This document shows positions 40,999-54,440 of a stretch of DNA of 64,000 nucleotides, one piece after another. Both the position numbers and the translations under genes were made by a program. The notes under the pieces are model-generated. The model worked only from the letters and a program-made list of their open reading frames with translations. It did no database searches and had not been told where the DNA came from. Within the stretch, counting starts at the first letter, position 1. Every line of letters starts with the position of its first letter. Source of the stretch: Escherichia phage A73; sequence record OP778609; one strand, given 5' to 3'.

Positions 40999-41027
40999 TT
41001 GACGTGGTGAATCTGGTAGCGTAGTAT
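40999..41027 (+). promoter_or_regulatory. sigma70-like promoter (first of the early cluster)
   Basis: TTGACG-N17-TAGTAT followed by a CATCTCATCG leader. Confidence 0.55.
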
Positions 41028-41084
41028 TCATCTCATCGAACGGCGACATGCCAACAAGTAAACAAATAAAAGGGCAACAACAAA

Positions 41085-41270
41085 ATGAATAAAAGAATTA
41101 CAAACGTAAATCCTGGCGAACGTTTCCAACATGAGGGGCATTTGCACACTGTAGTAAGCAACAAAGAGCATACTGTAAGAGTAAATAGAAATATCTTGCA
41201 ACTTCGCGATCGTTTTGGTATCGTACAGACTTACACTTTCGAAGCAAATAAAACAGTTAAAACTTTCTGA
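41085..41270 (+). CDS. hypothetical early protein
   Basis: 61-aa ORF downstream of a promoter. Confidence 0.45.
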   Translation: MNKRITNVNPGERFQHEGHLHTVVSNKEHTVRVNRNILQLRDRFGIVQTYTFEANKTVKTF

Positions 41271-41281
41271 GGATTTTTAAA

Positions 41282-41617
41282 ATGGCACTAGTCACTAAGT
41301 ATTTCATTGAAGGCCAGCAAGCGGCGCAACAAGGTTACAGCCGTGTTACTCGTTATAAGAAAGAAGAAAACAAGATTGAATTTTTCAAGGGTTACGATAG
41401 TGTAAACCGTGATGCAATGGTCCTACGCTTCGAATCCGATCCAGTGGGCAAGCCTGTTACCTCTTACCAGGCATCACCGCAGATTGTTTATGTTGGTACT
41501 GTTAAAGAATGTAACGACAAGTTAATCACTTTGAAGCAGGCCGATCGTGCGGGTTACTTTGTTGTTTACACTGCTGACGGTAAGCCTTACCAGTACGAAA
41601 GCAAATATTTTAAATAA
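41282..41617 (+). CDS. hypothetical early protein
   Basis: 111 aa; RBS GAGGA. Confidence 0.5.
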   Translation: MALVTKYFIEGQQAAQQGYSRVTRYKKEENKIEFFKGYDSVNRDAMVLRFESDPVGKPVTSYQASPQIVYVGTVKECNDKLITLKQADRAGYFVVYTADGKPYQYESKYFK

Positions 41618-41707
41618 AAAGTATTGACAGAAAGAAAGAAGTAAATTAAATTATACCACGTAACGCCGCAATCGTGCGGCAATAAAAACTGATAGGAATT
41701 GAACAAA

Positions 41708-41920
41708 ATGGCTAAAATCATCATTAAAAAATCCCGTGTATCTTCTGTTGCTCGCGTCGAAATGGTAAACACTATGCCAGGTTACCGGACTCGCGAGGAA
41801 GCCCGAAGCGTTGCAAAACAGATTAAAGCCCGTGGCTTAACTGTAAGTGCACCGACCAAAACACAAGAAGGATGGAAGGTATCTATTAAATCCGGTACAC
41901 TGTCAATCAATAAACACTAA
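41708..41920 (+). CDS. hypothetical early protein
   Basis: 70 aa from the ATG (track start is an upstream TTG at 41699); RBS AGGAA; basic protein. Confidence 0.45.
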   Translation: MAKIIIKKSRVSSVARVEMVNTMPGYRTREEARSVAKQIKARGLTVSAPTKTQEGWKVSIKSGTLSINKH

Positions 41921-41983
41921 TAGCCAAAACATTAACGGGGCAACTTTGCCCCTCATTAAATAACATTATCCAGGAGTATTAAC

Positions 41984-42142
41984 ATGACTAGCCAAAACAC
42001 TAACATTGAAAAAATCAACATTACTAAAGAGCGTAAAGCATGGAATGAAACATTAAATCTCAAAGGTAAGAAGCTAAATAAAACTAAACGCGATCGCAGT
42101 ACAAAGCGGGCCTTTTGTGAATTTACAGCGGATCAAGAATGA
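41984..42142 (+). CDS. hypothetical small basic protein
   Basis: 52-aa ORF absent from the track; preceded by GGGGCAACTTTGCCCC hairpin and RBS CAGGAG. Confidence 0.4.
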   Translation: MTSQNTNIEKINITKERKAWNETLNLKGKKLNKTKRDRSTKRAFCEFTADQE

Positions 42143-42438
42143 TGATTAAAGTTATTGCACTTACTACTTTATTGTGTATACCATTTTTGGCGCACGGTAC
42201 TAAGTTTTACGGTGCTAACTTGATAGATTGTAAAGCTCATATGCTGGACCATGAAACAGGCAACAAATTTGTTAAGCCTTTCCAGATCAATCCAGCGGCA
42301 TTTAGTGACGGTGTTTTGTATCAGGAAGGTAAAGCCAGTACGCTGATAATCCATTACGATCCAGCGACAAAGAAAGGTAGCTTATCAATCCAGATTGAAG
42401 GCGCGGAAGAGTTTTCAGGTAAAATAATCTGCAATTAA
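42139..42438 (+). CDS. secreted small protein
   Basis: 99 aa; N-terminal signal peptide (ALTTLLCIPFLAHG). Confidence 0.5.
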   Translation: MMIKVIALTTLLCIPFLAHGTKFYGANLIDCKAHMLDHETGNKFVKPFQINPAAFSDGVLYQEGKASTLIIHYDPATKKGSLSIQIEGAEEFSGKIICN

Positions 42439-42444
42439 TATGTT

Positions 42445-42476
42445 AAGGCCCGCCATTGTGCGGGCCTTTCTTTTAT
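42445..42476 (+). terminator. rho-independent terminator
   Basis: GGCCCGCCATTGTGCGGGCC hairpin plus TTTCTTTTAT. Confidence 0.7.
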
Positions 42477-42498
42477 GAAAATAATTTTGAAAATGTTG

Positions 42499-42526
42499 TT
42501 GACAGCACCGATTAAAAGCGTATAAT
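42499..42526 (+). promoter_or_regulatory. sigma70-like promoter with leader hairpin and no downstream ORF
   Basis: TTGACA-N16-TATAAT; leader hairpin CGGGGAACCAAACAAGTAACTCCCCG near 42541-42566; no ORF before the next promoter. Confidence 0.55.
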
Positions 42527-42616
42527 GTATTACATCAGGACGGGGAACCAAACAAGTAACTCCCCGTTAAGTAGTCCAGGAGTAAGACATACGAAAACCT
42601 CCCCTGATAAAATAGT

Positions 42617-42644
42617 TTGACAATAGTTTTTAGTACTGTATAAT
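42617..42644 (+). promoter_or_regulatory. sigma70-like promoter plus leader hairpin
   Basis: TTGACA-N16-TATAAT; hairpin GGGGAGAATAGTTCTCCCC near 42657-42675. Confidence 0.6.
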
Positions 42645-42695
42645 ACATTACATCAAGGGGAGAATAGTTCTCCCCACATCAAAGGAATCAAAACA

Positions 42696-42923
42696 ATGGC
42701 TATCGTAATCACTCGCGTATCTGGTACAGTTGGCAATGCGGCAGTAGTAGCGGTTATCACTAACAAGAAAGGTGCGGAACTACATTTTGCAATGTATAAC
42801 TGGTCAGTTGATGAGTTTGGTCAGTACGCTAGTGTAGAATACATTGAAACCTATCAAGTGCCGTCGATTAGTTTAACTGATTTGGGCGTTGAGCGTATCC
42901 TTTGCCTGGATGAATTAAATTAA
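42696..42923 (+). CDS. hypothetical early protein
   Basis: 75-aa ORF with promoter, hairpin and RBS. Confidence 0.5.
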   Translation: MAIVITRVSGTVGNAAVVAVITNKKGAELHFAMYNWSVDEFGQYASVEYIETYQVPSISLTDLGVERILCLDELN

Positions 42924-42931
42924 AAAAGTAC

Positions 42932-42959
42932 TTGCAAAGTAAGTCGGATAAAGTATAAT
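42932..42959 (+). promoter_or_regulatory. sigma70-like promoter plus leader hairpin
   Basis: TTGCAA-N16-TATAAT; hairpin GGGGAGAAATGATTCTCCCC. Confidence 0.55.
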
Positions 42960-43008
42960 ACATTACATCAAGGGGAGAAATGATTCTCCCCACTAAAAGG
43001 AAACTAAA

Positions 43009-43152
43009 ATGAAAACTTGTCAGTGTGGTAAAAAGTCTATTACTGGTCTGCGTCGCGGTGTTGCTTTATGCCAGTATCATTACAATAGTCAAGTATGGGG
43101 TAAAACGTGGGCTGACCAGGTTGAAGCAGCAAATAAAGCAAAAAGTAATTGA
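43009..43152 (+). CDS. small zinc-ribbon-like protein
   Basis: 47-aa ORF absent from the track; CQCG ... CQYH; own promoter, hairpin and RBS. Confidence 0.45.
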   Translation: MKTCQCGKKSITGLRRGVALCQYHYNSQVWGKTWADQVEAANKAKSN

Positions 43153-43176
43153 CAGTAAGAAGAAAAAGAGTAAACT
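43149..43176 (+). promoter_or_regulatory. sigma70-like promoter plus leader hairpin
   Basis: TTGACA-N16-TAAACT; hairpin GCGGCAATAGCGCCGC. Confidence 0.55.
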
Positions 43177-43227
43177 GTATTACGTAGAGCGGCAATAGCG
43201 CCGCCACATCAAAGAGAGAGAATCAAA

Positions 43228-43440
43228 ATGGCTAATATCCGCACTGCACTGAAAAATGCAAAACAAGTTTTATTCTCTGACGAGGAAGTATTTAATAAAG
43301 ATATTACAGGCGTTCGAAATCTTAAAGATATCTATGACATTTTCAGTATACGCATGAATATGAAACGTGTTGGAACGTTCGGGAATAAAGTACTGTATCA
43401 GAACGGTGATTATAATTTTACACTGACTATTATTAGTTGA
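43228..43440 (+). CDS. hypothetical early protein
   Basis: 70-aa ORF. Confidence 0.5.
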   Translation: MANIRTALKNAKQVLFSDEEVFNKDITGVRNLKDIYDIFSIRMNMKRVGTFGNKVLYQNGDYNFTLTIIS

Positions 43441-43533
43441 AAGTTTTAGTCTAGCGCTATTGACTTAAACCGATAGTGCTGGCATAATAACTTTTATCAA
43501 GTAGTACAAATCAAACAAAGAGAGAATACAATC

Positions 43534-43773
43534 ATGGCTAATAACAAAACTTTCAACGGTCACAAAAACAAAACTCATTGGAATGTTTCCTTGTGGATTA
43601 ATAACGATGCATCACTGTATCGACTGGCTAATGATTTCATCGCCGCTAACACTAATCGTAACGATGCGGCCCGTCATATGATGTTATTTTTAGAACAAAC
43701 CGGACAACATAAAACACCGGACGGATTCAAGTATAGTACTACTGCAATCCGTGCCGCGATGGTTGGAATGTAA
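43534..43773 (+). CDS. hypothetical early protein
   Basis: 79-aa ORF; promoter-like TTGACT ... CATAAT upstream. Confidence 0.5.
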   Translation: MANNKTFNGHKNKTHWNVSLWINNDASLYRLANDFIAANTNRNDAARHMMLFLEQTGQHKTPDGFKYSTTAIRAAMVGM

Positions 43774-43787
43774 AAAGAAAAAAGTAG

Positions 43788-43816
43788 TTGACACAAACAA
43801 GCAAAACAAGTAAATT
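43788..43816 (+). promoter_or_regulatory. sigma70-like promoter plus leader hairpin
   Basis: TTGACA-N17-TAAATT; hairpin GCGGGGAATGGCCCCGC. Confidence 0.55.
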
Positions 43817-43866
43817 AATCACATCAGGCGGGGAATGGCCCCGCTAAAAGAGAAGAGAGAAATCAA

Positions 43867-44196
43867 ATGGGCTTTTTATCTATCGTACAGACTAACTTCG
43901 AAAATGATTTTATTGCTCAAGCTATCAACATTGACAAAGGTATCCCAAATATCAATTTTGGTTTCAATAGTGGTGGTTATGAGAGATACCAGTATTTTGT
44001 AACTGACGATGGAAGTGTTTTAGGTATCAATACGGTGATGGCTAATATCCAAAACATTAATTTCAATGATCCCGATGAGCGCTCATTCTATATCGTCGGT
44101 GTCCAGGTGAACTACAATGATGACTCTTTAATCGATGATTACACTGGCGAGACGTTAGAAAGTGCTTACAGTGATGAATCAGAAGAAGAAAACTAA
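43867..44196 (+). CDS. hypothetical early acidic protein
   Basis: 109 aa; strongly acidic C-terminus. Confidence 0.5.
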   Translation: MGFLSIVQTNFENDFIAQAINIDKGIPNINFGFNSGGYERYQYFVTDDGSVLGINTVMANIQNINFNDPDERSFYIVGVQVNYNDDSLIDDYTGETLESAYSDESEEEN

Positions 44197-44210
44197 TATT
44201 AAAAAAGTAG

Positions 44211-44239
44211 TTGACTGAAAGAGTATAAAGAAGTAAGAT
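44211..44239 (+). promoter_or_regulatory. sigma70-like promoter plus leader hairpin
   Basis: TTGACT-N17-TAAGAT; hairpin GGGGGAACATTTCCCCC. Confidence 0.55.
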
Positions 44240-44294
44240 AATTAACGAATAGGGGGAACATTTCCCCCGTAAACAAAAGAAAGAGAGATTAAAA

Positions 44295-44477
44295 ATGACA
44301 GAACTGATTGCAACTACAAAGATCGAAGGCGTTAACGATGTTACTTTGTCCTATGATCCTTCTACTCTGGTTTATGTTGTGAAATATGGCAGAATGATCG
44401 CAGAACTTGATTGCATTGATGAGGCTTTCGAAAAATATTTCGAACTTATCAATATTGCTTATGATGACTACCGTTAA
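44295..44477 (+). CDS. hypothetical early protein
   Basis: 60-aa ORF. Confidence 0.45.
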   Translation: MTELIATTKIEGVNDVTLSYDPSTLVYVVKYGRMIAELDCIDEAFEKYFELINIAYDDYR

Positions 44478-44507
44478 TATACAACGCAAAAATAGGAAGG
44501 TGATAAA

Positions 44508-44717
44508 ATGATCAATGAAAAAACAATCAATGACGTTCGAGAGGAAGTTTTAGCCGTTGCCGTAGAATCTGGCGCACGTCAGGCATTTTGGAAAGCTACT
44601 GATCTTTACCCTGAGCAAGCCGAAAATATTCTCAATCAGGTCAGCGTTAAACTTGAACAAATGGGAAAACTGAAAACAAGTGAGCGCCTCGACCAAATCA
44701 TTAAAGAAAGTTTTTGA
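44508..44717 (+). CDS. hypothetical early protein
   Basis: 69 aa; RBS AGGAAGG. Confidence 0.5.
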   Translation: MINEKTINDVREEVLAVAVESGARQAFWKATDLYPEQAENILNQVSVKLEQMGKLKTSERLDQIIKESF

Positions 44718-44781
44718 TTGACTTTTAACATTGCCCCTATTAGTATTCAGGGGCAAGATTAAAAGAAACAAGGACACAAAG

Positions 44782-45093
44782 ATGAACGATATTGTTAGCA
44801 TCATAGGTTTACTGGGCATAGGTTACATCGCCACATCAATTACAATGAGTTACTTCAATAAAAGGCGTGATAAAATGTTTTGTTACTTTGAGTATCGTTA
44901 CCGTGGTAAGGTTGGATCATCCCGTGACTATGGTCCGATGTTAGAGATTGATGCGGTTGGCGCTATGCAGTATCGCCAGTCACTAGGGGCTGAAATAATT
45001 TTTGAAGTGTACCGCAGTACAGAAGAAGAGATCCACGACATTATTGACGAGCGTCAATATTACCACGAACAACAAACTAAACGCAGGGCTTAA
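44782..45093 (+). CDS. small membrane protein
   Basis: Start set at the ATG with RBS AAGGA; N-terminal TM helix (IVSIIGLLGIGYIATSI); track ORF begins at 44731. Confidence 0.5.
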   Translation: MNDIVSIIGLLGIGYIATSITMSYFNKRRDKMFCYFEYRYRGKVGSSRDYGPMLEIDAVGAMQYRQSLGAEIIFEVYRSTEEEIHDIIDERQYYHEQQTKRRA

Positions 45094-45096
45094 CAT

Positions 45097-45237
45097 ATGA
45101 CTAATACAAACCGACAAAAAATCATCAAAACTAAAAAACTTGATTTCGATACTTATCAAGAATGTAAGAAGAAGAAAGTAAAAGATAAGCGAGAGAACAA
45201 GCGGCACGAATGGATCACTAATACAATCGATCTTTAA
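45097..45237 (+). CDS. hypothetical small basic protein
   Basis: 46-aa Lys-rich ORF absent from the track; weak RBS. Confidence 0.3.
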   Translation: MTNTNRQKIIKTKKLDFDTYQECKKKKVKDKRENKRHEWITNTIDL

Positions 45238-45284
45238 CAATCAAGGCCCGCTATAATGTGGGCCTTTCTTTATGGAGAACAGAC

Positions 45285-45512
45285 ATGATTAATATTCTTT
45301 CACTTACAGAAGTGATCCGCTTCCTCAAAAACAACGCCCTGGGAACGTCTATAACGTATCTAATCCCTCAAGGTAAGGATTATGCCAGTGTTACACGTTC
45401 AATCACTGCTACGGCCTCCAGAGAAGAAATAAAGGTCAGTGTAAGCCAATTGCTCATCGTTGATCCTTCCTCCTGTGAAACAATCCAGGCTGTAAAGATA
45501 ATTAGAAAATAA
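45285..45512 (+). CDS. hypothetical early protein
   Basis: Start set at the ATG with RBS GGAGA; the track GTG start at 45258 lies inside the terminator hairpin. Confidence 0.45.
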   Translation: MINILSLTEVIRFLKNNALGTSITYLIPQGKDYASVTRSITATASREEIKVSVSQLLIVDPSSCETIQAVKIIRK

Positions 45513-45597
45513 TTTAAAAAACTTATTGCATCCATTATCGAGAAGATGTACATTAGTTTCATCAAGACGAGATGAAGATAACCCAAAGGTGATTGCT

Positions 45598-45891
45598 ATG
45601 TTATACGAAGTTTTTGCAGGTTTCTGTTTTTATGGTGCTGCCGCCGTTCGCCAGTGTGATGACTATGTAGTTGAGTCATTCGATGATCCTTTGGCGTGTG
45701 AGATTGTTACTACAGCTTATGAGCAAGATCGCCGTTGGATTAATCCAGCCTGTATCGCATCGCCTGAGGTTGAACCTATGCCGGAAGGTGAGGAATTAAC
45801 AGAGGAAGACTTGCAAGAAGTAAAAGAAGTTATGAGCTACATGATTGATAATCTGGACGCTGAAAACTTACAACGTGCATTGCAAAAATAA
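45598..45891 (+). CDS. hypothetical early acidic protein
   Basis: 97 aa from the internal ATG with RBS AAAGGTGA; the track start at 45526 lies inside the promoter. Confidence 0.45.
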   Translation: MLYEVFAGFCFYGAAAVRQCDDYVVESFDDPLACEIVTTAYEQDRRWINPACIASPEVEPMPEGEELTEEDLQEVKEVMSYMIDNLDAENLQRALQK

Positions 45892-45905
45892 TTTTAAAAA
45901 AGTAG

Positions 45906-45934
45906 TTGACTCGAAGAAACAAAACAATTAAATT
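45906..45934 (+). promoter_or_regulatory. sigma70-like promoter plus leader hairpin
   Basis: TTGACT-N17-TAAATT; hairpin GCGGGGAATGGCCCCGC, near-identical to the module at 43788. Confidence 0.55.
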
Positions 45935-45984
45935 AATCACATGAGGCGGGGAATGGCCCCGCTGAACAAAAAGAGATTATGAAA

Positions 45985-46359
45985 ATGGCTAAAAATACTA
46001 ACGTTTGTGATTACGCTGATCTGGTTACTCTGAATGCAGATTCTAAAATCAACCTGTCAAACGTGGAAGCGGTGCACGTCCTGGCCCGCCGCTGGTTCCA
46101 AAAGTTATATGGTAATACTTATTTCTCTTTAAGTGTAGATGTGGAGATCGCTGGTAAATTGGTAGAAGTAGTTAACGTCCCGTTTAAATATGGTTATGGT
46201 GATCATTTCGATACCGTGGCACTGGAAGAATTTAGCAAGGTTATCAACATGGAAGGAAAAGAGTTTTCAGAGTATAGTTACCTTTCCCGTTTTTGCCGTG
46301 ACAATAACATCCCTGTTTATTCGAACGCTGTTGATGTTAAACGCAAAAAAGATATGTAA
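45985..46359 (+). CDS. hypothetical early protein
   Basis: Start taken at the second ATG (MAKNTNV); track start 45979. Confidence 0.5.
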   Translation: MAKNTNVCDYADLVTLNADSKINLSNVEAVHVLARRWFQKLYGNTYFSLSVDVEIAGKLVEVVNVPFKYGYGDHFDTVALEEFSKVINMEGKEFSEYSYLSRFCRDNNIPVYSNAVDVKRKKDM

Positions 46360-46365
46360 TTATTA

Positions 46366-46393
46366 TTGACAGTACATAGAAAACAAGTAAACT
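46366..46393 (+). promoter_or_regulatory. sigma70-like promoter plus leader hairpin
   Basis: TTGACA-N16-TAAACT; hairpin AGCGGGAACACTTCCCGCT. Confidence 0.55.
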
Positions 46394-46446
46394 GTATTAC
46401 ATAGAAAGCGGGAACACTTCCCGCTTATATTCCAGGAGTAAGAGAA

Positions 46447-46698
46447 ATGATCGAACAAATCAAAACTACGACGGCTAATGTAACGGGTACAGTATCGCAC
46501 TTCATTAGTGATGAATCACGGGGCGTTCCTTATTGTGCAGTACATATAAACAAAAATGGCGACTACTGGTTAACGGCGTATGGATCTTATTCTTTCGGAC
46601 GTAGTGCACACCAAAAGATCCTAGATAAAGTACAGCCAACGGGTAAAAATATTACCGCTGAGATGTTTAATAAATCACTTGCAAAGTTAAAAGCGTAA
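46447..46698 (+). CDS. hypothetical early protein
   Basis: 83 aa; RBS CAGGAG. Confidence 0.5.
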   Translation: MIEQIKTTTANVTGTVSHFISDESRGVPYCAVHINKNGDYWLTAYGSYSFGRSAHQKILDKVQPTGKNITAEMFNKSLAKLKA

Positions 46699-46759
46699 AG
46701 TATAATACATCACATCAGGCGGGGAGTGTTTCCCCGCCACAAAACGAAAGGCCAACAAA

Positions 46760-46930
46760 ATGAAAGCAAGCATGATGGTAGCGACTGTAAACATTATCAT
46801 TGGTAACGGAACTGGACACCACGAAATCATAAAAAACAAGGCTTACTCTATTAGCTCCCTCAAAAACGACATGCGTTTATCTTTGGGCCAAATCCGCGCT
46901 TACTTTCGTGAAGGCTATCAGAAAAAGTAG
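46760..46930 (+). CDS. hypothetical small protein
   Basis: 56-aa ORF absent from the track; preceded by a TATAAT element and GCGGGGAGTGTTTCCCCGCC hairpin. Confidence 0.4.
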   Translation: MKASMMVATVNIIIGNGTGHHEIIKNKAYSISSLKNDMRLSLGQIRAYFREGYQKK

Positions 46931-46998
46931 CAAATTAATAGTTGACGCAAAGGTCATTTTAATTTAATCTATAACAAATCGACAAATGAGGCATAATC

Positions 46999-47301
46999 AT
47001 GTTTACCAAAGCAAATGAGTATTTCTTTTTAGATTTACTTGATGAAAGTATCTTTGTAGCTATGGGCAAAAAGTCAATGGTCTTTAAACGCAAAAAAGAT
47101 AATGGTGAATTTGAAGATAGCGAAGCCGTGCTAACAGTCAAGGAAGGTAAAGAACCTGCAACGTCTGTTTTAATCTACACCTTGACCAACGGCGGTGAAG
47201 TTATCGCATCAGGTAGTAGCCATCCGATCCCAAAATCGGAAGTGAACACTGTAATTATTGGTTTTGTTGCAGCTTGTTTCTACGAGGAAAAAAGCAAATG
47301 A
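46999..47301 (+). CDS. hypothetical early protein
   Basis: 100 aa; RBS GAGG. Confidence 0.5.
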   Translation: MFTKANEYFFLDLLDESIFVAMGKKSMVFKRKKDNGEFEDSEAVLTVKEGKEPATSVLIYTLTNGGEVIASGSSHPIPKSEVNTVIIGFVAACFYEEKSK

Positions 47302-47462
47302 ATCCGCAAAATTTATCTTATGTAAACTGGCCCAATAAGGCTGAGAAGAAAGAAAACTTGAAACGTCTGGTTAACTTTTATCGTGAAGCTGGTCATAGTA
47401 AAGTAACAGCGGTTAAAATGGCAAAGCGCCACCTTAACAAGCCAAGTACTAAACTAATTTAA
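47298..47462 (+). CDS. hypothetical small basic protein
   Basis: Start at the ATG overlapping the upstream stop (ATGA); track ORF 47274. Confidence 0.4.
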   Translation: MNPQNLSYVNWPNKAEKKENLKRLVNFYREAGHSKVTAVKMAKRHLNKPSTKLI

Positions 47463-47534
47463 AAAACTTGTTGACGTTGGCTTGTGCCGTACCTATAATG
47501 GACGGCATAGGCAAACGAAATAGGATTTATAGAA

Positions 47535-47741
47535 ATGAAAAAGAAAATTGTATATAATATTATTAGCTTTATCGCAACTATCCTCCTGGCTATTGCTGGT
47601 CTATCTTTGATTGTTGCAGTAGGATCTCTGTTTCCTGGGGCAATAAGTATTAGCATAGCTTTCGCCGCATTGTCTGTTTTTACAGGGTATGCAGGGATTA
47701 AAGTTACTTACTGGTCAGAAGATTACAAATATTCAAACTAA
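47535..47741 (+). CDS. small membrane protein (two TM helices)
   Basis: 68 aa, hydrophobic; promoter TTGACG-N17-TATAAT upstream. Confidence 0.5.
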   Translation: MKKKIVYNIISFIATILLAIAGLSLIVAVGSLFPGAISISIAFAALSVFTGYAGIKVTYWSEDYKYSN

Positions 47742-47754
47742 ATTGAGGTGTAAG

Positions 47755-47904
47755 ATGTACAAGCTATTAACCTGGGAAACAGAATCATCGTCACCGATCA
47801 GCCGGACCTTTTTTGATTTGTGCACGGCTTACAGGCTGGCAAAGGGAGGATATCATAAGGCCCAAATCATTGATGAATTTAATGTTATCCTTTATGAATT
47901 TTAA
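47755..47904 (+). CDS. hypothetical small protein
   Basis: 49 aa from the ATG with RBS GAGGTG; the track ORF starts inside the previous gene. Confidence 0.4.
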   Translation: MYKLLTWETESSSPISRTFFDLCTAYRLAKGGYHKAQIIDEFNVILYEF

Positions 47905-48033
47905 TCAATTCATACACTTAAAAGAAAGTTAGAAAAAGTTTTAAAAAGTGGTTGCAACAGGTATTGGATAGTAGTATAGTACTTTCAACGGGGCGAGATG
48001 GCCCAAAACGAAAAAACTTGAAAGGTGATTATC

Positions 48034-48129
48034 ATGATGGCAATTTTCTTAGTTTCTCTTCTGGTTGCTGTATGTTCTGCCACTGCTGCCGCTGTACTTT
48101 ATGACACTCGCTACAATGAGGAATAATAA
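48034..48129 (+). CDS. small hydrophobic peptide
   Basis: 31-aa ORF absent from the track; promoter TTGCAA-N17-TATAGT and RBS AAGGTGA. Confidence 0.35.
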
Positions 48130-48131
48130 AA

Positions 48132-48350
48132 ATGAATATTGTCAACATTACAGGTAAGACCGAGATCCTTAAGAATCTTGCACCAGGTGAGTCCACCGTA
48201 TGGATCTGCAAAGATGGAGAAGTAGAAAAACAAATGAGATTGTTTACCGCTATTTGTTGTCGGTTAAACATGAAAGTTACACAAATCCGGTCGATGATTG
48301 TTAGTGTGGGAAACATTCCGACTGAATGCATAATTCTTACAAAGATTTAA
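48132..48350 (+). CDS. hypothetical early protein
   Basis: 72 aa; RBS GAGGAA. Confidence 0.5.
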   Translation: MNIVNITGKTEILKNLAPGESTVWICKDGEVEKQMRLFTAICCRLNMKVTQIRSMIVSVGNIPTECIILTKI

Positions 48351-48426
48351 AAATAGCTTTACAACAACGATAAAATCAGTACAATACAAATCAGGCAATA
48401 AAGCCGACTAAAGAAAGGTAAAGACC

Positions 48427-48666
48427 ATGCAAACTATTATCACTAAATTTCTTCCTCCTACTAATACCCGTGGCGCTCGCATCAAAGCAAAATGTTGGTT
48501 GACAGATATCACTATCGCCTATCCGGTAGCCGAGATCAACGAAGCCCATAAACTGGCGGCAGAAGTGTTAATTACAAAATTGAAGATGACAACAGATATT
48601 GATTGGAATATCGTTGCAAGCGGTGAAACACCGGACGGCAGCGGCTACGCTTTCATTATCAAATAA
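48427..48666 (+). CDS. hypothetical early protein
   Basis: 79 aa; RBS AAAGG. Confidence 0.5.
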   Translation: MQTIITKFLPPTNTRGARIKAKCWLTDITIAYPVAEINEAHKLAAEVLITKLKMTTDIDWNIVASGETPDGSGYAFIIK

Positions 48667-48720
48667 TCATAAAGCGGCGGGAATAGTTCCCGCCTTATTA
48701 AAGAGAAAAGAGAAGATATC

Positions 48721-48999
48721 ATGACTATTACTAAATTATCCACCGAAGAGATCACCAACATTCTGACTACTAATCTTGAAGATTGGAAGCGTGAAGCTGA
48801 TTTGCAAGCAACCTGTAAGCTGAATACAGAGCTAACATCAGACGATATTGAAACGATCGTCCATGCTGATTTCTATGATGCTTTGCATGATGATTCTATC
48901 ATCCTTGAAACGATGCTAGATAATGCCTGGATTAATCCCGATTTGGCGGCGTATGGTCGTAGCACCTTTATCACTATCCACAATATTTATAACCGTTAA
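48721..48999 (+). CDS. hypothetical early protein (paralog of 49671-49949)
   Basis: 92 aa; MTI(T/A)KLSTEEI ... TTNLE(D/Q)WKREAD ... FITIH(N/D)IYN shared with the other copy. Confidence 0.55.
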   Translation: MTITKLSTEEITNILTTNLEDWKREADLQATCKLNTELTSDDIETIVHADFYDALHDDSIILETMLDNAWINPDLAAYGRSTFITIHNIYNR

Positions 49000-49126
49000 G
49001 AGGCGATAAATGGTCCTGTAACAGCCTAAAACGGCGAAAGTATGCAATCACCTTACTTGACGATATTCTACGCACTGGCTTACACTGGGGCTTTTAAAAG
49101 GGCACAAAATAATTCGAAAAAAGTAG

Positions 49127-49154
49127 TTGACGGCAATTAATAATCTGGTAAAGT
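49127..49154 (+). promoter_or_regulatory. sigma70-like promoter plus leader hairpin
   Basis: TTGACG-N16-TAAAGT; hairpin GGCGGCAATAGCGCCGCC. Confidence 0.55.
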
Positions 49155-49201
49155 GTACCACGTAAGGCGGCAATAGCGCCGCCATTAAAGAGATAAACGA
49201 A

Positions 49202-49588
49202 ATGAAACAAGAAATCATCAATGAAATTATTAGCGGTTACAAAGAAGCCTTTATTTTCGCTGAATCAGCAACAGATCAGCACGGGGAGTATATCGATAAC
49301 CTTGATCCTTATGACTTCTCCCAGGATGCAAACGACCGGATCGCCCAGGATGTGACAGCCTTTATCAATGCTAATGTTGCCGCTATCTCTGAAGCGATGA
49401 GCGACGGCGCTACAGCCAACCAGATCGGGAATGATTTACATTTTACCCGTAACGGTCACGGTGTAGGCTTTTGGGATCGCCCTGAAATATACACCACTAA
49501 CACGGCTAACCGTTTGAGCAATGCCGCTAAATTAATGCCTAACGTGTCAGCTTACATTGGGAAAGATAATCTGATTTATATTGAATAA
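49202..49588 (+). CDS. hypothetical early protein
   Basis: 128-aa ORF. Confidence 0.5.
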   Translation: MKQEIINEIISGYKEAFIFAESATDQHGEYIDNLDPYDFSQDANDRIAQDVTAFINANVAAISEAMSDGATANQIGNDLHFTRNGHGVGFWDRPEIYTTNTANRLSNAAKLMPNVSAYIGKDNLIYIE

Positions 49589-49594
49589 AAAGTA

Positions 49595-49622
49595 TTGACA
49601 AGCTGAATCAACCTGATAAGAT
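49595..49622 (+). promoter_or_regulatory. sigma70-like promoter plus leader hairpin
   Basis: TTGACA-N16-TAAGAT; hairpin GGGGCGACAAGCGCCCC. Confidence 0.55.
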
Positions 49623-49670
49623 GTATCACATAGGGGCGACAAGCGCCCCGCCTAACAGAGAGATAGAATC

Positions 49671-49949
49671 ATGACCATCGCCAAATTATCCACCGAAGAA
49701 ATCGAACAAGTGTTAACTACTAACCTGGAACAATGGAAACGTGAGGCAGATATACAATCAGCAAAATGGCTTAACGAGAAGTTAACACCGGATGATCTGA
49801 GTAAGATTATAGATCCTCAATTCTATGAAGATATTCACGACACGGCGTTATCCGTTGAGGATGTACTCGATAAGCATTACATTGCTACTGATTTGCAGGT
49901 TTACGGGCGTAAAAACTTTATTACTATTCACGACATTTACAATAACTAA
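49671..49949 (+). CDS. hypothetical early protein (paralog of 48721-48999)
   Basis: 92 aa; see 48721-48999. Confidence 0.55.
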   Translation: MTIAKLSTEEIEQVLTTNLEQWKREADIQSAKWLNEKLTPDDLSKIIDPQFYEDIHDTALSVEDVLDKHYIATDLQVYGRKNFITIHDIYNN

Positions 49950-49984
49950 GGGCGGCAACGCCCTACAACTAAAAGGGTAATATT

Positions 49985-50179
49985 ATGACGTTAGCAACAT
50001 GCACCGGATCAAAAATTGCTTGCTTTGAGTTTATGGAAGACTATGAAACGACAGCTATCACCGATCAATATATCACCGTGATCACGCGTGACGGTATCGC
50101 CTGGCATGTTCCGGTTTATGATGGGGATACCTATGAAGTCACCGACAGCGGCGGCAATACAGCTATCTTTGTTGTCTAA
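49985..50179 (+). CDS. hypothetical early protein
   Basis: 64-aa ORF. Confidence 0.45.
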   Translation: MTLATCTGSKIACFEFMEDYETTAITDQYITVITRDGIAWHVPVYDGDTYEVTDSGGNTAIFVV

Positions 50180-50192
50180 GGGGGGAAACACT

Positions 50193-50420
50193 ATGCACAA
50201 TAACATCATTACCGATCGTGCCGCTACTATGCGCCCTGGCGATCGGGCACGTTTACAGATCGGCGCTTATCCGTTCCCTACCTATGACTTTTGCAAAGTA
50301 ACCGCTATCGAAAACAATCCCTTTGATCCTGATACCGTGATCATCTGGTACGAAGGAAAGGGAAATAAATTTGAAGACATTTTGGGGCGGGATGAGCATA
50401 TCAATATTATTCGTTACTAA
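50193..50420 (+). CDS. hypothetical early protein
   Basis: 75 aa from the ATG with RBS AAGGGGGG; the track ORF 50088 starts inside the previous gene. Confidence 0.45.
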   Translation: MHNNIITDRAATMRPGDRARLQIGAYPFPTYDFCKVTAIENNPFDPDTVIIWYEGKGNKFEDILGRDEHINIIRY

Positions 50421-50538
50421 TCGCCACCTAACAGCCTAAATAGTAGGAGGCAATGCAATCCCCTACTCAATGAGAATGGAGCGCCCTGGCTTATGCTGGG
50501 GCGTTCTACGTTACAGCAAAATAATTTTAAAAATACAC

Positions 50539-50567
50539 TTGACGTTCGCCAGGTGAGCGGGTATATT
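50539..50567 (+). promoter_or_regulatory. sigma70-like promoter plus leader hairpin
   Basis: TTGACG-N17-TATATT; hairpin GGGCGGCAATAGTGCCGCTC. Confidence 0.55.
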
Positions 50568-50616
50568 TTATCACGTAGGGCGGCAATAGTGCCGCTCACT
50601 GACTGGAGCTATCATT

Positions 50617-51018
50617 ATGGCCTTTACAATCACCTCTTACACTGACGTTGCCAACATTGCTAAAACTTTCGGCCCTGAAGCCCTTAAGTATGCGGTATCC
50701 AATGGTAAACTAACGAAAGAGCAATGTTACCTGATTGGAAGCTGTAAACGTTGGGCGGCATCTCGTAACATCGAGATTGAAAACGTAAATGATGGTAACA
50801 TCGAGTATAGCGTTGATGCAGTATTCAAGGCCGTGTATTTGGGCGGTATCTACAATACCAATCTTAATGATGTTCGTATCGTTCGCACTGGTTTTGGGGC
50901 TTATGATGTTCCAGTCCGCGAAGCTATGGAAAAAGGTTATATTAATCCAGCTATTTTAAGTATGATCATGACTGAGGCCAAAGAACGTAACGAAGTACGG
51001 GCCATCCTGGGCCTGTAA
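50617..51018 (+). CDS. hypothetical early protein
   Basis: 133-aa ORF. Confidence 0.5.
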   Translation: MAFTITSYTDVANIAKTFGPEALKYAVSNGKLTKEQCYLIGSCKRWAASRNIEIENVNDGNIEYSVDAVFKAVYLGGIYNTNLNDVRIVRTGFGAYDVPVREAMEKGYINPAILSMIMTEAKERNEVRAILGL

Positions 51019-51039
51019 TGAAATATTAATCGAAAACTA

Positions 51040-51067
51040 TTGACACGGATCGTCAATATGCTAATAT
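51040..51067 (+). promoter_or_regulatory. sigma70-like promoter plus leader hairpin
   Basis: TTGACA-N16-TAATAT; hairpin GGGCGGCAATATCGCCGC. Confidence 0.55.
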
Positions 51068-51122
51068 TTATCACGTAGGGCGGCAATATCGCCGCTCACC
51101 CCTTAAAAGAGCGAGATCTAAA

Positions 51123-51338
51123 ATGGCGTTAACAAAACAAGAAATCATCGACCGCATCAAAGAGTCAACTGGCGAGAATATTGGTAATGGTTTAATTGTT
51201 AAAGTTCTTGATTATTCAAATAATCCCCTGGCACCGGAACCAGTGGCTTACAAATTATCCTGGATATCCGTATTTAGTGGTAAGCGTACAAGATGCGTAT
51301 ACTATCCGAACACCGTGGGGCGTCAGTACTGTAAATAA
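51123..51338 (+). CDS. hypothetical early protein
   Basis: 71-aa ORF. Confidence 0.45.
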   Translation: MALTKQEIIDRIKESTGENIGNGLIVKVLDYSNNPLAPEPVAYKLSWISVFSGKRTRCVYYPNTVGRQYCK

Positions 51339-51398
51339 AGGGCACTTTAATATTAATAAGGGGCGGCAACGCCCCAGGTCAACCAAAGGGAAACAACA

Positions 51399-51605
51399 AT
51401 GAGTATTGCAATGATTAGCTCATCCGACATTAAAAAGGCTTTATCTGTATTGCGCTATCACCATAGAAGGAAGGTAATCAATGACGAGAGCTATCTAGAT
51501 TCATCGTTAGAAAGCGATACGTTGGAAGCCATTTCAAAATTATCTGATTTGCATAAACGCATGACCGAAAGCAACCGATCCGACTTCATAGGGGGCGAAA
51601 TATGA
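51399..51605 (+). CDS. hypothetical early protein
   Basis: 68-aa ORF. Confidence 0.45.
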   Translation: MSIAMISSSDIKKALSVLRYHHRRKVINDESYLDSSLESDTLEAISKLSDLHKRMTESNRSDFIGGEI

Positions 51606-51862
51606 GTATTGCAATGTTAATCAATACCGTAGAAGAGGCGAAAGCATTAAAGTTACGTGTTGAACTGATTGATCAACCAGGTGGAGATCTCCTTGTACAA
51701 ATCTATCCCCCAAAGGATGATTCTGGCGCTTATGATTGGTGCTACTCTGACACGTTCGAACAAGTAGACATTAAAGCAATAACATCATTTATCAACAGGG
51801 CTATACTTGAGCAAACGATAGAACTTAACGGGATGTTAAAAACACCCTGGCACATTTACTGA
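51602..51862 (+). CDS. hypothetical early protein
   Basis: 86 aa; ATGA overlap; starts MSIAM like the upstream gene. Confidence 0.45.
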   Translation: MSIAMLINTVEEAKALKLRVELIDQPGGDLLVQIYPPKDDSGAYDWCYSDTFEQVDIKAITSFINRAILEQTIELNGMLKTPWHIY

Positions 51863-51871
51863 GTTCGACAA

Positions 51872-51900
51872 AAGGGCTTGACTTGTTCAGCCCTTTTTTG
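51872..51900 (+). terminator. rho-independent terminator
   Basis: AAGGGCT ... AGCCCTT stem followed by TTTTTT. Confidence 0.7.
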
Positions 51901-52038
51901 CTATTCTTATCAAACGGGCGGCACCTGGGAACAGGGGGAGGTAATCACTGGACGACTCCGCTATACAGTGATAGTAAATAGCTATCAATAATCTCCAAAA
52001 ATAAAATAAAACCTATCGAGTCTTTACAATTCTTTCTG

Positions 52039-52067
52039 TTGACACAACAACCGCATTACAGTATTAT
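52039..52067 (+). promoter_or_regulatory. sigma70-like promoter with conserved leader and no downstream ORF for about 300 nt
   Basis: TTGACA-N17-TATTAT and TTATCTCGTAGGG leader; stop codons dense in all three forward frames until the next promoter. Confidence 0.55.
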
Positions 52068-52341
52068 TTATCTCGTAGGGCAGCGAAGCAGTGATGTAAA
52101 GTAGTTACTCTATGATGTAAGTTCTGAGAAGTCGAATCCGATAAAGTATCAGAAAGTTTCTAAGTTTTCGAATCGTCCAGATGAAAAAGGCTGGCAAGTG
52201 TTGAGAAAGGGCACGTTGAGTAAGTCCTGAACAGGGGCGCTCCTAGACACCTTCTACTGAGATTGCGATCGAAGTGTTAAACTGTGAGAAACAAAAGAGC
52301 GCTAGGAAAGAAAGAAACAAGAAAAGAAGTTAAAAAGATTG

Positions 52342-52371
52342 TTGACACAAAAGTAAGTTGTATACTATTAT
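52342..52371 (+). promoter_or_regulatory. sigma70-like promoter
   Basis: TTGACA-N18-TATTAT with TCTCGTAGGG leader. Confidence 0.55.
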
Positions 52372-52415
52372 ATCTCTCGTAGGGCAAACATTCAAAACAT
52401 CAAAAAGGGTACAAA

Positions 52416-52691
52416 ATGTTACAACTTAACGCTAAATTAGACAAAGAAATCACTGAATTTTGGGATATGGTAGTAGCTACTGATGTGGACGGTGTAGCAA
52501 GTCCTTACCTCAATAACATCGAGTATCACAATGTTGCCGCTATCAATGCAGAACACAAAGAGAAAGGCGGTGCTGATAAATTTGCTAAAAGCAATGGCTT
52601 CACTGATGCTAATCACATGATGCAATCAGTATTGTGGCAAGCTCAAGAAGATTTCGAAGAAAAAACTCTTGAATTTGCCAGACGCTCATAA
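52416..52691 (+). CDS. hypothetical early protein
   Basis: 91-aa ORF; followed by GGGCCGAAAGGCCC hairpin. Confidence 0.5.
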   Translation: MLQLNAKLDKEITEFWDMVVATDVDGVASPYLNNIEYHNVAAINAEHKEKGGADKFAKSNGFTDANHMMQSVLWQAQEDFEEKTLEFARRS

Positions 52692-52746
52692 TAGAATAAT
52701 CAAACGGGCCGAAAGGCCCACTAACTGACCTAACAGGATTAACATC

Positions 52747-53016
52747 ATGAATCGCATCGACCAGCTTAAAGTAGTTCAGCATATGGCTTACCGTATCCTT
52801 GAAGTTCAGAAAGGGAGCAAAAAAGAAGTATGTGAGAAGGCTTATAAGGTATTCAGCCACAAAGCTGATGATTGGAAGTTGCAGAAAGTCAAAAAGGCCG
52901 ATATCCTGGGCTACCTTGAGGATGAGATCCGCCTTGCGGAGCAAAAACAGATTCGTCGTGATGAGGCAGAACATAACCAGGCCTGGCAGGAGTGGTTTAA
53001 AGGGTATACTAAGTAA
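52747..53016 (+). CDS. hypothetical early protein
   Basis: 89-aa Lys/Glu-rich ORF. Confidence 0.5.
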   Translation: MNRIDQLKVVQHMAYRILEVQKGSKKEVCEKAYKVFSHKADDWKLQKVKKADILGYLEDEIRLAEQKQIRRDEAEHNQAWQEWFKGYTK

Positions 53017-53026
53017 TATCGAAAAC

Positions 53027-53052
53027 GGGGGGTTATATGCCCCCTTTGTAAA
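53027..53052 (+). terminator. rho-independent terminator
   Basis: GGGGGGTTATATGCCCCC hairpin followed by a T-rich tract. Confidence 0.6.
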
Positions 53053-53079
53053 TATTCCATTAATTTACAATTCCCTCTA

Positions 53080-53109
53080 TTGACAAGAAAGTCAATTTTG
53101 CAGTATAGT
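53080..53109 (+). promoter_or_regulatory. sigma70-like promoter
   Basis: TTGACA-N18-TATAGT. Confidence 0.55.
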
Positions 53110-53149
53110 TATATCTCTAGCAGCAAACAACAAAACAAAGGACAACGAC

Positions 53150-53569
53150 ATGAACATCAAATCAACTAATCCGGCTTACTCTTTCGATAACGCTTTTTGT
53201 CACGGTAGTGCCGCCAAAGGTTTTGAAATTGATGGTAAACTGGTTATCGTCAATGTTGATGGGGAAGAGGTTGCAGTTTATCCAGTGGCAGACGTTAAAA
53301 GCCGTTTACAATGCCGCATGGATGTTAACGAATACCGCCTTGATCCGGTTCGTGTCGTTGCCCTGGTACTGGAAGAAGAAATTAAAGCAATGCAGCACAG
53401 CAACAAATTTATCGGCGATGCACAGGACAACATGAAAGTAAGCCGCCACAAAGTTAATGAAGCACTGAAAGATTTTGGCTTTAAAGATCTAGTTATCAAA
53501 CGTGATGAAAAATTTCGCTTTCGTAATGATCTGGCAAATCGCTACTATGAAATCTATGAAGCACTTTAA
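53150..53569 (+). CDS. hypothetical early protein
   Basis: 139-aa ORF. Confidence 0.5.
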   Translation: MNIKSTNPAYSFDNAFCHGSAAKGFEIDGKLVIVNVDGEEVAVYPVADVKSRLQCRMDVNEYRLDPVRVVALVLEEEIKAMQHSNKFIGDAQDNMKVSRHKVNEALKDFGFKDLVIKRDEKFRFRNDLANRYYEIYEAL

Positions 53570-53584
53570 GAGGTAAGACAACAA

Positions 53585-53608
53585 GGGGCCGCAATAGCGG
53601 CCTTTTCT
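53585..53608 (+). terminator. rho-independent terminator
   Basis: GGCCGCAATAGCGGCC hairpin plus TTTT, immediately before the next promoter. Confidence 0.65.
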
Positions 53609-53609
53609 A

Positions 53610-53638
53610 TTGACACCTGCTAATCATTCCTTTAATAT
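53610..53638 (+). promoter_or_regulatory. sigma70-like promoter
   Basis: TTGACA-N17-TAATAT. Confidence 0.55.
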
Positions 53639-53689
53639 GTACCTTGTAGGGCAAGCAATAACGCAAGCCCATAAATAGGACAAACTATC

Positions 53690-54379: not shown

Positions 54380-54440
54380 CCACACAAAGAGGCTATGCAC
54401 CACAAAGAGAGGCCGTACTTGCCCACAAAAGGAGCAAACA
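54380..54440. repeat. three spaced copies of CCACAAAGAGG-like motif
   Basis: GACCACACAAAGAGG, CACCACAAAGAGAGG, GCCCACAAAAGGAGC at roughly 20-bp spacing. Confidence 0.55.

Follow-up and report, generated by a model that had tools for sequence, protein, structure and literature searches.

The 64,000-nucleotide stretch of Escherichia phage A73 considered here (sequence record OP778609; hereafter the window) contains, between 41 and 53.9 kb, an array of approximately 38 small rightward open reading frames (ORFs). By reading and scanning this sequence we find 14 promoter-to-hairpin modules on the + strand between 41.6 and 51.1 kb, 13 of which stand before one of these ORFs. A preliminary description had counted at least 15 such modules among some 40 small genes; the architecture is present where it was placed, while the count falls to 14, including one module that precedes no ORF. 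Phage A73 is a Vequintavirinae coliphage of approximately 143 kb, and the array interval is 94% identical to the Escherichia phages UPEC06, A5-4, A7_1, LTH01 and W70, myoviruses of approximately 137-145 kb that are also classed under Vequintavirinae; matches of 82-87% to parts of the interval occur in Phapecoctavirus and Justusliebigvirus genomes and in the jumbo phage 121Q. Those array ORFs that were tested hit only PHROGs of unknown function, and no Pfam family was found for them. An Rfam scan of 38-58 kb at E<=1 returned two sub-threshold chance hits only, and ARAGORN found no tRNAs in the region scanned. The consensus module had 0 matches across 5,426 complete E. coli genomes, and it is therefore not a repeat of the host resembling repetitive extragenic palindromic (REP) elements.

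The promoter-hairpin module array is genuine and statistically solid. With 100 dinucleotide-preserving shuffles as the null model, the + strand of 40.9-53.7 kb holds 14 promoter-hairpin couples against 0.03 (maximum 1) in the shuffles, and both components are individually in excess, with 33 promoter-like sites (10.6+-2.8 in shuffles) and 24 GC hairpins (3.4+-1.9 in shuffles). The - strand of the same interval has 1 couple, and all 14 couples of the window fall inside the array interval. Indeed, the other 85 kb of A5-4, the closest complete genome, gives approximately 146 promoter-like hits and one plausible couple, and the rest of this genome type (approximately 130 kb) holds 1-2 couples at most. 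No complete module lies past 51.1 kb in the interval, and approximately ten promoters within it lack a leader hairpin (40999, 43460, 45527, 46942, 47952, 48358, 52039, 52342, 53080 and 53610). Other strong promoters of the phage, which stand before larger genes (e.g. 32570 and 37624, and 29760 and 19409 on the - strand), share the same leader style (…CATCAAAACAAAGAGGAGA…ATG) without a hairpin, indicating that the hairpin is an add-on specific to the small-gene array.

The order of parts is constant, and runs from a -35 element through a spacer of 16-17 nt, a -10 of the form TAnnnT, a box of 9-14 nt (e.g. ACATTACATCAA, GTATTACGTAG, AATCACATCA, TTATCACGTA), a GC hairpin and an A-rich leader to the ATG. 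Promoters of near-consensus TTGACA/TATAAT type had been described, which is borne out for the -35 (TTGACA, TTGCAA, TTGACT or TTGACG) but not for the -10, which is often only TAnnnT (TAAACT, TAAATT, TAAGAT) and is TATAAT in 4 modules. Likewise, stems in the window modules measure 5-9 bp rather than the 6-8 bp first given, whereas loops are of 3-6 nt as described, except for one of 14 nt. Among 99 unique modules, an A-rich stretch (aaAAaa) at -10 to -5 upstream of the -35 accompanies the TTGACA-like -35 and TAnnnT -10. In the 14 modules the hairpin begins 9-14 nt past the -10, with a folding free energy (dG) of -10 to -18 kcal/mol, and 17-28 nt of unpaired A-rich leader separate the stem from the ATG; an AGAGA/GGAG ribosome site and ATG follow the stem in 13/14. 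Assigning +1 by the Y-1/R+1 step 7-8 nt past the -10, where the conserved CA/CG of the box is located, yields predicted transcripts with 0-5 unpaired nt at the 5' end, followed by the hairpin. For all 13 leaders (13/13) the minimum free energy structure equals the centroid, with z of -1.6 to -3.7. The 8 nt after the stem contain 0-3 T in all 14 window hairpins, and the G-rich arm comes first, in the direction of transcription, in 21/22 non-terminator hairpins of the array. Many otherwise unlike hairpins (e.g. 42664-42669, 43193-43198, 49171-49176, 50584-50589) have in common an apical [G/C]AAT[A/G]G, with a near-invariant AA on the 5' side of the loop that is paired in some copies and unpaired in others; common descent, gene conversion at a crossover site and a recognition motif are candidate causes of this sharing.

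All modules lie on the + strand, and each is given here from the start of its -35. M1 (41624..41710) has TTGACA-17-TAAATT, the box ataccacgtaac, a hairpin at 41665-41680 (GCCGCAatcgTGCGGC; dG -10.8, z -1.75) and an ATG at 41708. The orphan M2 (42499..42610; TTGACA-16-TATAAT, box gtattacatcagg, hairpin 42540-42567 with a 7-bp stem and the 14-nt loop) combines a perfect-consensus promoter with no ORF; a decayed ribosome site and start, aggagtaagacATA, stands in place of the ATG. It lies in tandem approximately 118 nt upstream of M3 and also occurs in UPEC06. M3 itself (42617..42698) has TTGACA-16-TATAAT, the box acattacatcaa, a hairpin at 42657-42675 (GGGGAGAAtagTTCTCCCC; dG -13.3, z -3.19) and an ATG at 42696, and is followed by M4 (42932..43011; hairpin 42972-42991, ATG 43009), whose promoter, TTGCAA-16-TATAAT, is of the jumbo-phage type and which, together with its ORF, is common to 121Q at approximately 83% nucleotide identity. 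In M5 (43149..43230) TTGACA-16-TAAACT and the box gtattacgtag precede a hairpin at 43189-43204 (GCGGCaatagcGCCGC) and an ATG at 43228; in other phages 5 other hairpins stand before the same gene. M6 (43788..43869; TTGACA-17-TAAATT, box aatcacatca, hairpin 43827-43845, GGCGGGGaatggCCCCGCT, ATG 43867) has an outer pair that is G.T, A-T or G-C among orthologues. Further along are M7 (44211..44297; TTGACT-17-TAAGAT, hairpin 44252-44268, GGGGGAAcatTTCCCCC, ATG 44295), M8 (45906..45987; TTGACT-17-TAAATT, hairpin 45945-45963, ATG 45979/45985), M9 (46366..46449; TTGACA-16-TAAACT, hairpin 46406-46426, AAGCGGGAAcacTTCCCGCTT, ATG 46447) and M10 (46679..46762; hairpin 46718-46738, ATG 46760), whose TTGCAA-16-TATAAT promoter overlaps the 3' end of the upstream ORF. 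The last four are M11 (49127..49204; TTGACG-16-TAAAGT, hairpin 49166-49183, GGCGGCaatagcGCCGCC, ATG 49202), M12 (49595..49673; TTGACA-16-TAAGAT, hairpin 49633-49649, GGGGCGacaagCGCCCC, ATG 49671), M13 (50539..50619; TTGACG-17-TATATT, hairpin 50578-50597, GGGCGGCAatagTGCCGCTC, ATG 50617) and M14 (51040..51125; TTGACA-16-TAATAT, hairpin 51078-51097, ATG 51123).

Pairing and position are conserved despite turnover of the stem sequence, as the preliminary description had maintained. Pooled loci gave 115 modules with 85 unique hairpin contexts, 32 Watson-Crick stem families and 21 loop types, with loops of 3-7 nt; pairs were counted by a loop-anchored script, which is circular for detection and was hence used for diversity alone. 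In 68/85 unique contexts the stem begins 10-12 nt past the -10, which places the hairpin at approximately +1 to +8 of the predicted transcript, and none of the 85 contexts has five or more T in the 8-nt tail (mean 1.45). When orthologues were defined from the first 90 nt of the downstream ORF alone, to avoid circularity, a GC hairpin was found to be retained in the 62 nt upstream at 77/82 orthologous gene starts (15 loci), in lineages that are 70-85% identical, with up to six different hairpins before one and the same gene; 3 of the 5 gene starts that lack it lie inside an operon in the phage concerned. Compensatory stem changes were also found among related phages, both as double changes (A-T to G-C in the M9 stem of LTH01; G-C to A-T, AGGGAGAA/TTCTCCCT, in WPEC3) and as a paired deletion, with M7 of UPEC06 having lost one A and one T together such that the stem is preserved. 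Moreover, a single pair alternates between G.T, A-T and G-C in M6, M8 and M10, and loops vary more often than stems among close relatives. Damaged copies exist as well, affecting the outer pair of M5 in the window, an inner pair of M6 in W70, and one position (a mismatch) in each of two metagenomic copies.

In viral metagenome contigs the promoter-plus-box pattern matched 8 sites, and a hairpin follows in 7/8, although the yield of IMG/VR was low (5 stretches for the promoter-plus-box pattern and 1 locus for a protein query) and INPHARED phage records were far richer. Mangalyan, a genuine Vequintavirus, carries approximately 9 modules with unrelated boxes, in which the hairpin offset is still 9-11 nt. 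A MAFFT alignment of 48 modules was structurally inconsistent owing to the differing lengths of stems and loops, and the subset of modules with 4-nt loops was dominated by one family; no covariance model was therefore built.

Comparison of the window with its five close relatives, A5-4, UPEC06, A7_1, LTH01 and W70, places most breaks in synteny on or beside these elements. Breaks fall at 42545-42638 (M2/M3), 43457-43501 (promoter 43460), 43773-43778 (just upstream of M6), 46694 (M10), 49166-49188 (M11), 49642-49662 (M12), 50575-50608 (M13) and 51086-51087 (M14), at lone hairpins (48667, 49957 and 51346-51361), and at 53605 and 53889, the two copies of the GGCCGCAATAG hairpin. Only two lie elsewhere, at 49008-49017 and at 53449. 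Overall, a hairpin lies no more than 12 nt from 11 of the 18 junction clusters, but from only 26% of intergenic positions (P=0.002). In alignment M13 is a chimera of two A5-4 modules that flank an extra gene: the left-hand module matches M13 in promoter, box and loop, the right-hand one in 3' flank and gene, and the shared hairpin is the crossover zone. The break at 53449 is the right end of a deletion in W70, which lacks 46694-53449 (6.7 kb); the left junction lies in M10 and the right one inside ORF 53150-53569, giving a fused or longer ORF, and half of the array is thus dispensable for a viable phage.

Exchange also extends beyond the close relatives. The module occurs in Vequintavirus, Phapecoctavirus and jumbo Asteriusvirus phages, and cassettes common to 121Q, the 384-kb phage WPEC3 and AV126 (Phapecoctavirus) have 70-87% nucleotide identity in scrambled order. 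Shared blocks often end on hairpins, as in the case of 46410-46738, which runs from the M9 hairpin to the end of the M10 hairpin. Two promoter types coexist in the window, TTGCAA-16-TATAAT, which is uniform in jumbo phages, and TTGACA-16-TAAACT/TAAGAT, which is of the Phapecoctavirus type, suggesting that cassettes arrive with their own promoter. An evolutionary role in cassette shuffling is supported by these comparisons. Going beyond the preliminary description, they identify the unit as a probable mobile cassette akin to the PeSL elements of T4-type phages (discussed below), to which gene indel junctions and inter-family exchange map.

Hairpins of the same class, i.e. with the G-rich arm first and no T-tail, also occur in intergenic DNA without a promoter. 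The hairpin at 41937..41952 (+) lies 31 nt before ATG 41984. That at 48676..48694 (GGCGGGAAtagTTCCCGCC, +) lies 9 nt past a stop codon and 26 nt before ATG 48721, close to breakpoint 48667, and the one at 49949..49964 (AGGGCGgcaaCGCCCT, +), which includes breakpoint 49957, adjoins a stop codon. The hairpin at 51360..51375 (GGGGCGgcaaCGCCCC, +), at breakpoints 51346-51361, is joined to the M14 promoter in A5-4, and another with a GGGCCgaaaGGCCC core (52703..52722, +) precedes ATG 52747. Near the right end of the array, a terminator-like hairpin, GGCCGCaataGCGGCC followed by TTTTCTA (53587..53609, +), stands immediately upstream of promoter 53610, and its repeat partner, CAGGGGCCGCaataGTGGCCCTTG (53893..53916, +), forms the right junction of an indel of gene 53690-53887, the gene between these two hairpins being absent from UPEC06 and LTH01. 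At two further + strand promoters the arms of the stem-loop straddle the -10, as in the PeSL geometry of phage RB49: TTGACT-17-TAGTAT at 44718..44754, with arms GCCCC (44733-37) and GGGGC (44750-54), and TTGACG-17-TATAAT at 47471..47508, with arms GTGCCGT (47484-90) and ACGGCAT (47502-08). These RB49-type promoters coexist with the leader-hairpin modules in one array.

Hairpins with T-runs had been described as similar to the leader hairpins and as terminators of the upstream gene. Such hairpins do exist in the interval, at 42445, 45243, 51870 and 53587, but they form a separate class with an A-tract or a C-rich 5' arm. The canonical intrinsic terminators comprise AAGGCCCGCcattgtGCGGGCCTT followed by TCTTTTAT (42445..42478, +), which has a C-rich 5' arm, and AAGGCCCGCtataatGTGGGCCTT followed by TCTTTAT (45243..45275, +). 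A terminator-like structure read from the sequence, AAAGGGCT-10 nt-AGCCCTTT followed by TTT (51870..51898, +), closes the gene block. More generally, canonical terminators of the genome, among them 42445, 45243 and A-tract/T-tract hairpins in other parts of the window, combine flanking A and T tracts with a C-rich 5' arm.

Several further features of the array and its surroundings were noted. The ORFs at 48721-48999 and 49671-49949 encode 92-residue paralogues that are 56% identical, with one cassette between them; the first is preceded by a promoter-less hairpin and the second by the full module M12. Between 51863 and 52415, approximately 550 nt contain no convincing ORF, and relatives carry small minus-strand ORF annotations there; this stretch comprises the terminator-like hairpin 51870-51898, promoter 52039 (TTGACA-17-TATTAT) and then a noncoding stretch of approximately 260 nt that extends to promoter 52342. 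The candidate noncoding RNA 52075-52335, which is the predicted transcript of promoter 52039, folds no better than shuffles (z +0.85). Directly after the array, 53890-54900 is noncoding, pyrimidine-rich and rich in repeats, including a 58-nt direct repeat present twice (54501/54604, 98% identical), ATTGCCAGAGTATGG(A/C)GG present three times, and several shorter repeats and inverted repeats. The records of several relatives are linearised near this stretch, which may function as an origin, or else represent a packaging or terminal region. To the left, divergent back-to-back sigma70-like promoters at 31401 (-) and 31405 (+), with standard leaders lacking a hairpin, mark the switch from leftward to rightward transcription, and the sign of the GC skew flips at approximately 32 kb. 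An Srd-like RNase E stimulator has been reported for rV5 gp11 (rV5 paper); no Srd-like protein was found among the larger ORFs at 30.8-39.8 kb, the stretch to which this search was confined.

A potential explanation for these patterns, which we hold with middling confidence, is that the array consists of copies of a portable, mobile early-expression cassette, each ending in a small ORF of unknown function, in which the hairpin caps the 5' end of the mRNA as a putative stabiliser or insulator and the repeats drive shuffling. Host RNA polymerase would start just upstream of the hairpin, such that each cassette mRNA would open with a stable stem-loop. This stem-loop may shield the message from end-dependent decay (RppH, RNase E), and may also insulate the ribosome site from upstream sequence; together, such shielding and insulation would allow the cassette to work in any genomic context. 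Furthermore, the 60-90 bp of near-identical cassette sequence, chiefly the box and hairpin, would provide a preferred crossover site for homologous recombination, which would shuffle the small genes as has been proposed for the PeSLs of T4-type phages. The molecular role as a 5' leader hairpin is put forward here as a hypothesis.

Several observations weigh against this interpretation. The +1 was derived solely from promoter geometry, and our literature search returned no start-site or transcriptome data for rV5-like, Phapecoctavirus or Justusliebigvirus phages. A 5' end with 0-5 unpaired nucleotides is at the upper edge of what protects, and the predicted 3-5 unpaired nucleotides may still give access to RppH or RNase E. 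Several promoter-less hairpins of this class exist just past stop codons (41937, 48676, 49949, 51360, 52703), and a 5'-terminal position is consequently not obligatory. In RB49, comparable G-first hairpins lie in the promoter spacer or across the -10 (12/13); the adjacent promoter does not transcribe this DNA, and a function linked to DNA or to an intergenic location is thereby favoured. A strand test for action at the RNA level also lends no support. The raw counts favour G.T over A.C (19 vs 5 internal positions; 18 vs 2 in an earlier count), an excess that comes from one abundant family, and with families collapsed they become 4 vs 5, with P=0.28 in an energy comparison. The fixed spacing may stem from shared ancestry of the copies and not from constraint. 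With respect to shuffling, the enrichment of junctions at hairpins is moderate once limited to intergenic DNA, and hairpin elements do not differ significantly from hairpin-less promoters in their presence at junctions (Fisher P=0.14).

Several alternative hypotheses may account for the hairpins. Under the original reading of PeSLs they would act as attenuators or terminators of read-through, each small gene relying chiefly on its own promoter for expression. When a PeSL stem-loop of RB49 was inserted between promoter and lacZ, expression fell as much as with rrnB T1 (PMC2839356); in the array, no further terminator separates the upstream stop codon from the hairpin in most intergenic regions that carry a module, and promoter-less hairpins directly follow stop codons. 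However, the tails described above contain no U-tract, the real terminators of the genome are of a different class (A-tract, C-first arm, T-tail), a terminator behind its own promoter would kill the transcripts of that promoter, and a hairpin past the promoter would not stop promoter occlusion by read-through, so that we regard attenuation as unlikely. Rather doubtful, too, is a role as an intercistronic RNA barrier, in which the hairpin, after cleavage in the A-rich leader, would shield the upstream message from 3'-to-5' exonucleases in the manner of REP elements. Hairpins of this class, with or without a promoter, are always intergenic and upstream of an A-rich single-stranded stretch, and the comparable hairpins of RB49 take varied positions relative to promoters; yet the tight spacing from the -10 (10-12 nt in 80% of unique contexts, even with a different box) would be needless at a 3' end, and many array genes have no downstream hairpin.

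The junction data raise the possibility that the hairpin is instead an active DNA recombination signal recognised by structure and extruded in single-stranded DNA, either similar in function to an integron attC site, though carried alongside a promoter, or corresponding to the site-specific option for PeSL mini-circles. Junctions at hairpins above intergenic expectation, the M13 crossover within a hairpin, promoter-less hairpins at junctions in 5/8 cases, the maintenance of structure with variable sequence, and the passage of whole cassettes between unrelated phage families are all in line with this proposal. If it were true, the arrays would be an exchange system moving ready-to-express small genes between Vequintavirinae, Stephanstirmvirinae and Asteriusvirus, rather than a by-product of homology. 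We nevertheless consider it improbable. The box and hairpin are the longest identical stretch between modules, and ordinary homologous recombination therefore explains the junctions. Moreover, no recombinase is associated with the array, the large W70 deletion ends within an ORF at its right end (53449), and the strictly G-first orientation with respect to transcription suggests a role linked to it. This same orientation, along with the lack of sequence conservation, makes the symmetric cruciform or operator envisaged in the preliminary description unlikely. A protein or antiterminator target had likewise been envisaged, and a specific binding site (a nut-like boxA/boxB, a translational operator, or a palindromic DNA operator for early-gene shut-off) would fit the semi-conserved box before the hairpin, the [G/C]AAT[A/G]G of many apices, and a position just past the start that suits a roadblock or nascent-RNA binding. 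Loops and stems are, however, too heterogeneous for a single target (32 stem families, 21 loop types, loops of 3-7 nt), Mangalyan has an unrelated sequence in place of the box, no Rfam family matches, and an antiterminator would meet few terminators in the array, leaving this explanation with very little probability. Finally, the hairpin could be a functionless passenger of a duplicated promoter region, given that the modules are clearly paralogous and that gene conversion could maintain their similarity. This we find highly improbable, since stems have turned over into many families yet remain paired, with compensatory double changes and a paired deletion, loops evolve faster than stems among close relatives, and lineages with 70-85% identity keep a hairpin at 94% of their orthologous gene starts.

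Arrays of this type hold dozens of small early genes of unknown function, a class that usually houses host-takeover and anti-defence functions, and these genes travel as self-sufficient units of promoter, leader hairpin and ribosome site across at least three large-coliphage lineages. The module provides a simple sequence signature for finding accessory-gene regions and recombination junctions, and the cassettes may serve as compact, context-independent parts for strong expression. In addition, the placement of the hairpin in the transcript in some phages, and in or before the promoter in others, constitutes a natural experiment on its candidate roles as a 5' stabiliser/insulator, attenuator or recombination site.

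Among known systems, the predicted leaders resemble the 5' stabilisers of ompA and papA in having a stable hairpin a few nucleotides from the 5' end, followed by an unstructured translation initiation region, with structure and position rather than sequence being what counts. RNase E decay is faster when a single-stranded 5' end is accessible, and the ompA and papA mRNAs gain stability from their 5' stem-loops (PMC3997798); 5'-terminal and engineered 5' hairpins are the subject of Emory, Bouvet and Belasco 1992 and Arnold et al. 1998, as cited in that article. By contrast, the element described here is repeated, mobile and fused to a promoter, and its function is proposed from sequence. Intrinsic terminators are likewise short GC-rich hairpins in intergenic DNA, but the module hairpins are G-first and have no U-tract (0-3 T in 8 nt). 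The lambdoid nut sites also consist of a short box and then a small hairpin early in the transcript; here, however, loops and stems vary in sequence, a boxA-like consensus is missing, nothing points to an N-like protein, and sites stand at every small gene, whereas nut occurs once per operon. With integron attC sites the arrays share small single-gene cassettes that are bounded by an imperfect inverted repeat conserved in structure and not in sequence, and whose order is scrambled between genomes. They differ in that there is no integrase, each cassette has its own promoter, the junctions are explained by homology, and the stems are short and perfect, without extrahelical bases.

The closest likeness is to the PeSLs of T4-type phages, in which a composite of early promoter, stem-loop and Shine-Dalgarno (SD) sequence flanks ORFans in hyperplastic regions, mediates indels and mini-circles, and contains a stem-loop that behaves as a terminator in lacZ fusions (PMC2839356; PMC4122927). 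These elements are carried by RB49/phi1, PST/T4 and nt-1/KVP40 (Arbiol et al. 2010, PMC2839356; Comeau et al. 2014, PMC4122927). Both systems combine a sigma70-like early promoter with an AT-rich stretch, a stem-loop of the form G(n)-loop-C(n), and an SD and ATG; both cluster among small ORFans in a hyperplastic region and include degraded "half" elements; and in both, the junctions of indels and replacements between close relatives fall in the motif, with crossovers that can lie in the stem-loop. The phages here are, however, Vequintavirinae, Stephanstirmvirinae and Asteriusvirus rather than T4-type, and cassettes are exchanged between unrelated phage families. Geometry differs as well. The PeSL stem-loop occupies the -35/-10 interval, spans the -10 or immediately precedes the promoter (PMC2839356; PMC4122927), with PST and nt-1 having it just upstream and RB49 in the -35/-10 spacer or straddling the -10, whereas in 14/16 stem-loop-bearing promoters here the stem lies 9-14 nt downstream of the -10, within the predicted transcript of that promoter, and only 44718 and 47471 have arms straddling the -10. 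The terminator role of PeSL stem-loops is mismatched here by position and by the absent U-tract. In our scan of the RB49 hyperplastic region, 12/13 stem-loops overlap the promoter and 1 lies upstream, leaders lack hairpins, and there is one genuine downstream case. This hairpin, at RB49 22321 on the minus strand, lies 9 nt downstream of the -10 (TGGGAGGGgtaataCTCTCCCA) in the same architecture as the window modules, and the two geometries are consequently not strictly lineage-specific. The rV5 paper lists promoters and terminators only, and our literature search found no earlier account of the module in rV5-like, Phapecoctavirus, Justusliebigvirus or Asteriusvirus phages, although this is not proof of absence. 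The module array is best classed with the PeSLs, as a variant with a new architecture, located in phage groups without described PeSLs, and extends the PeSL idea of a mobile regulatory cassette beyond T4-type phages.

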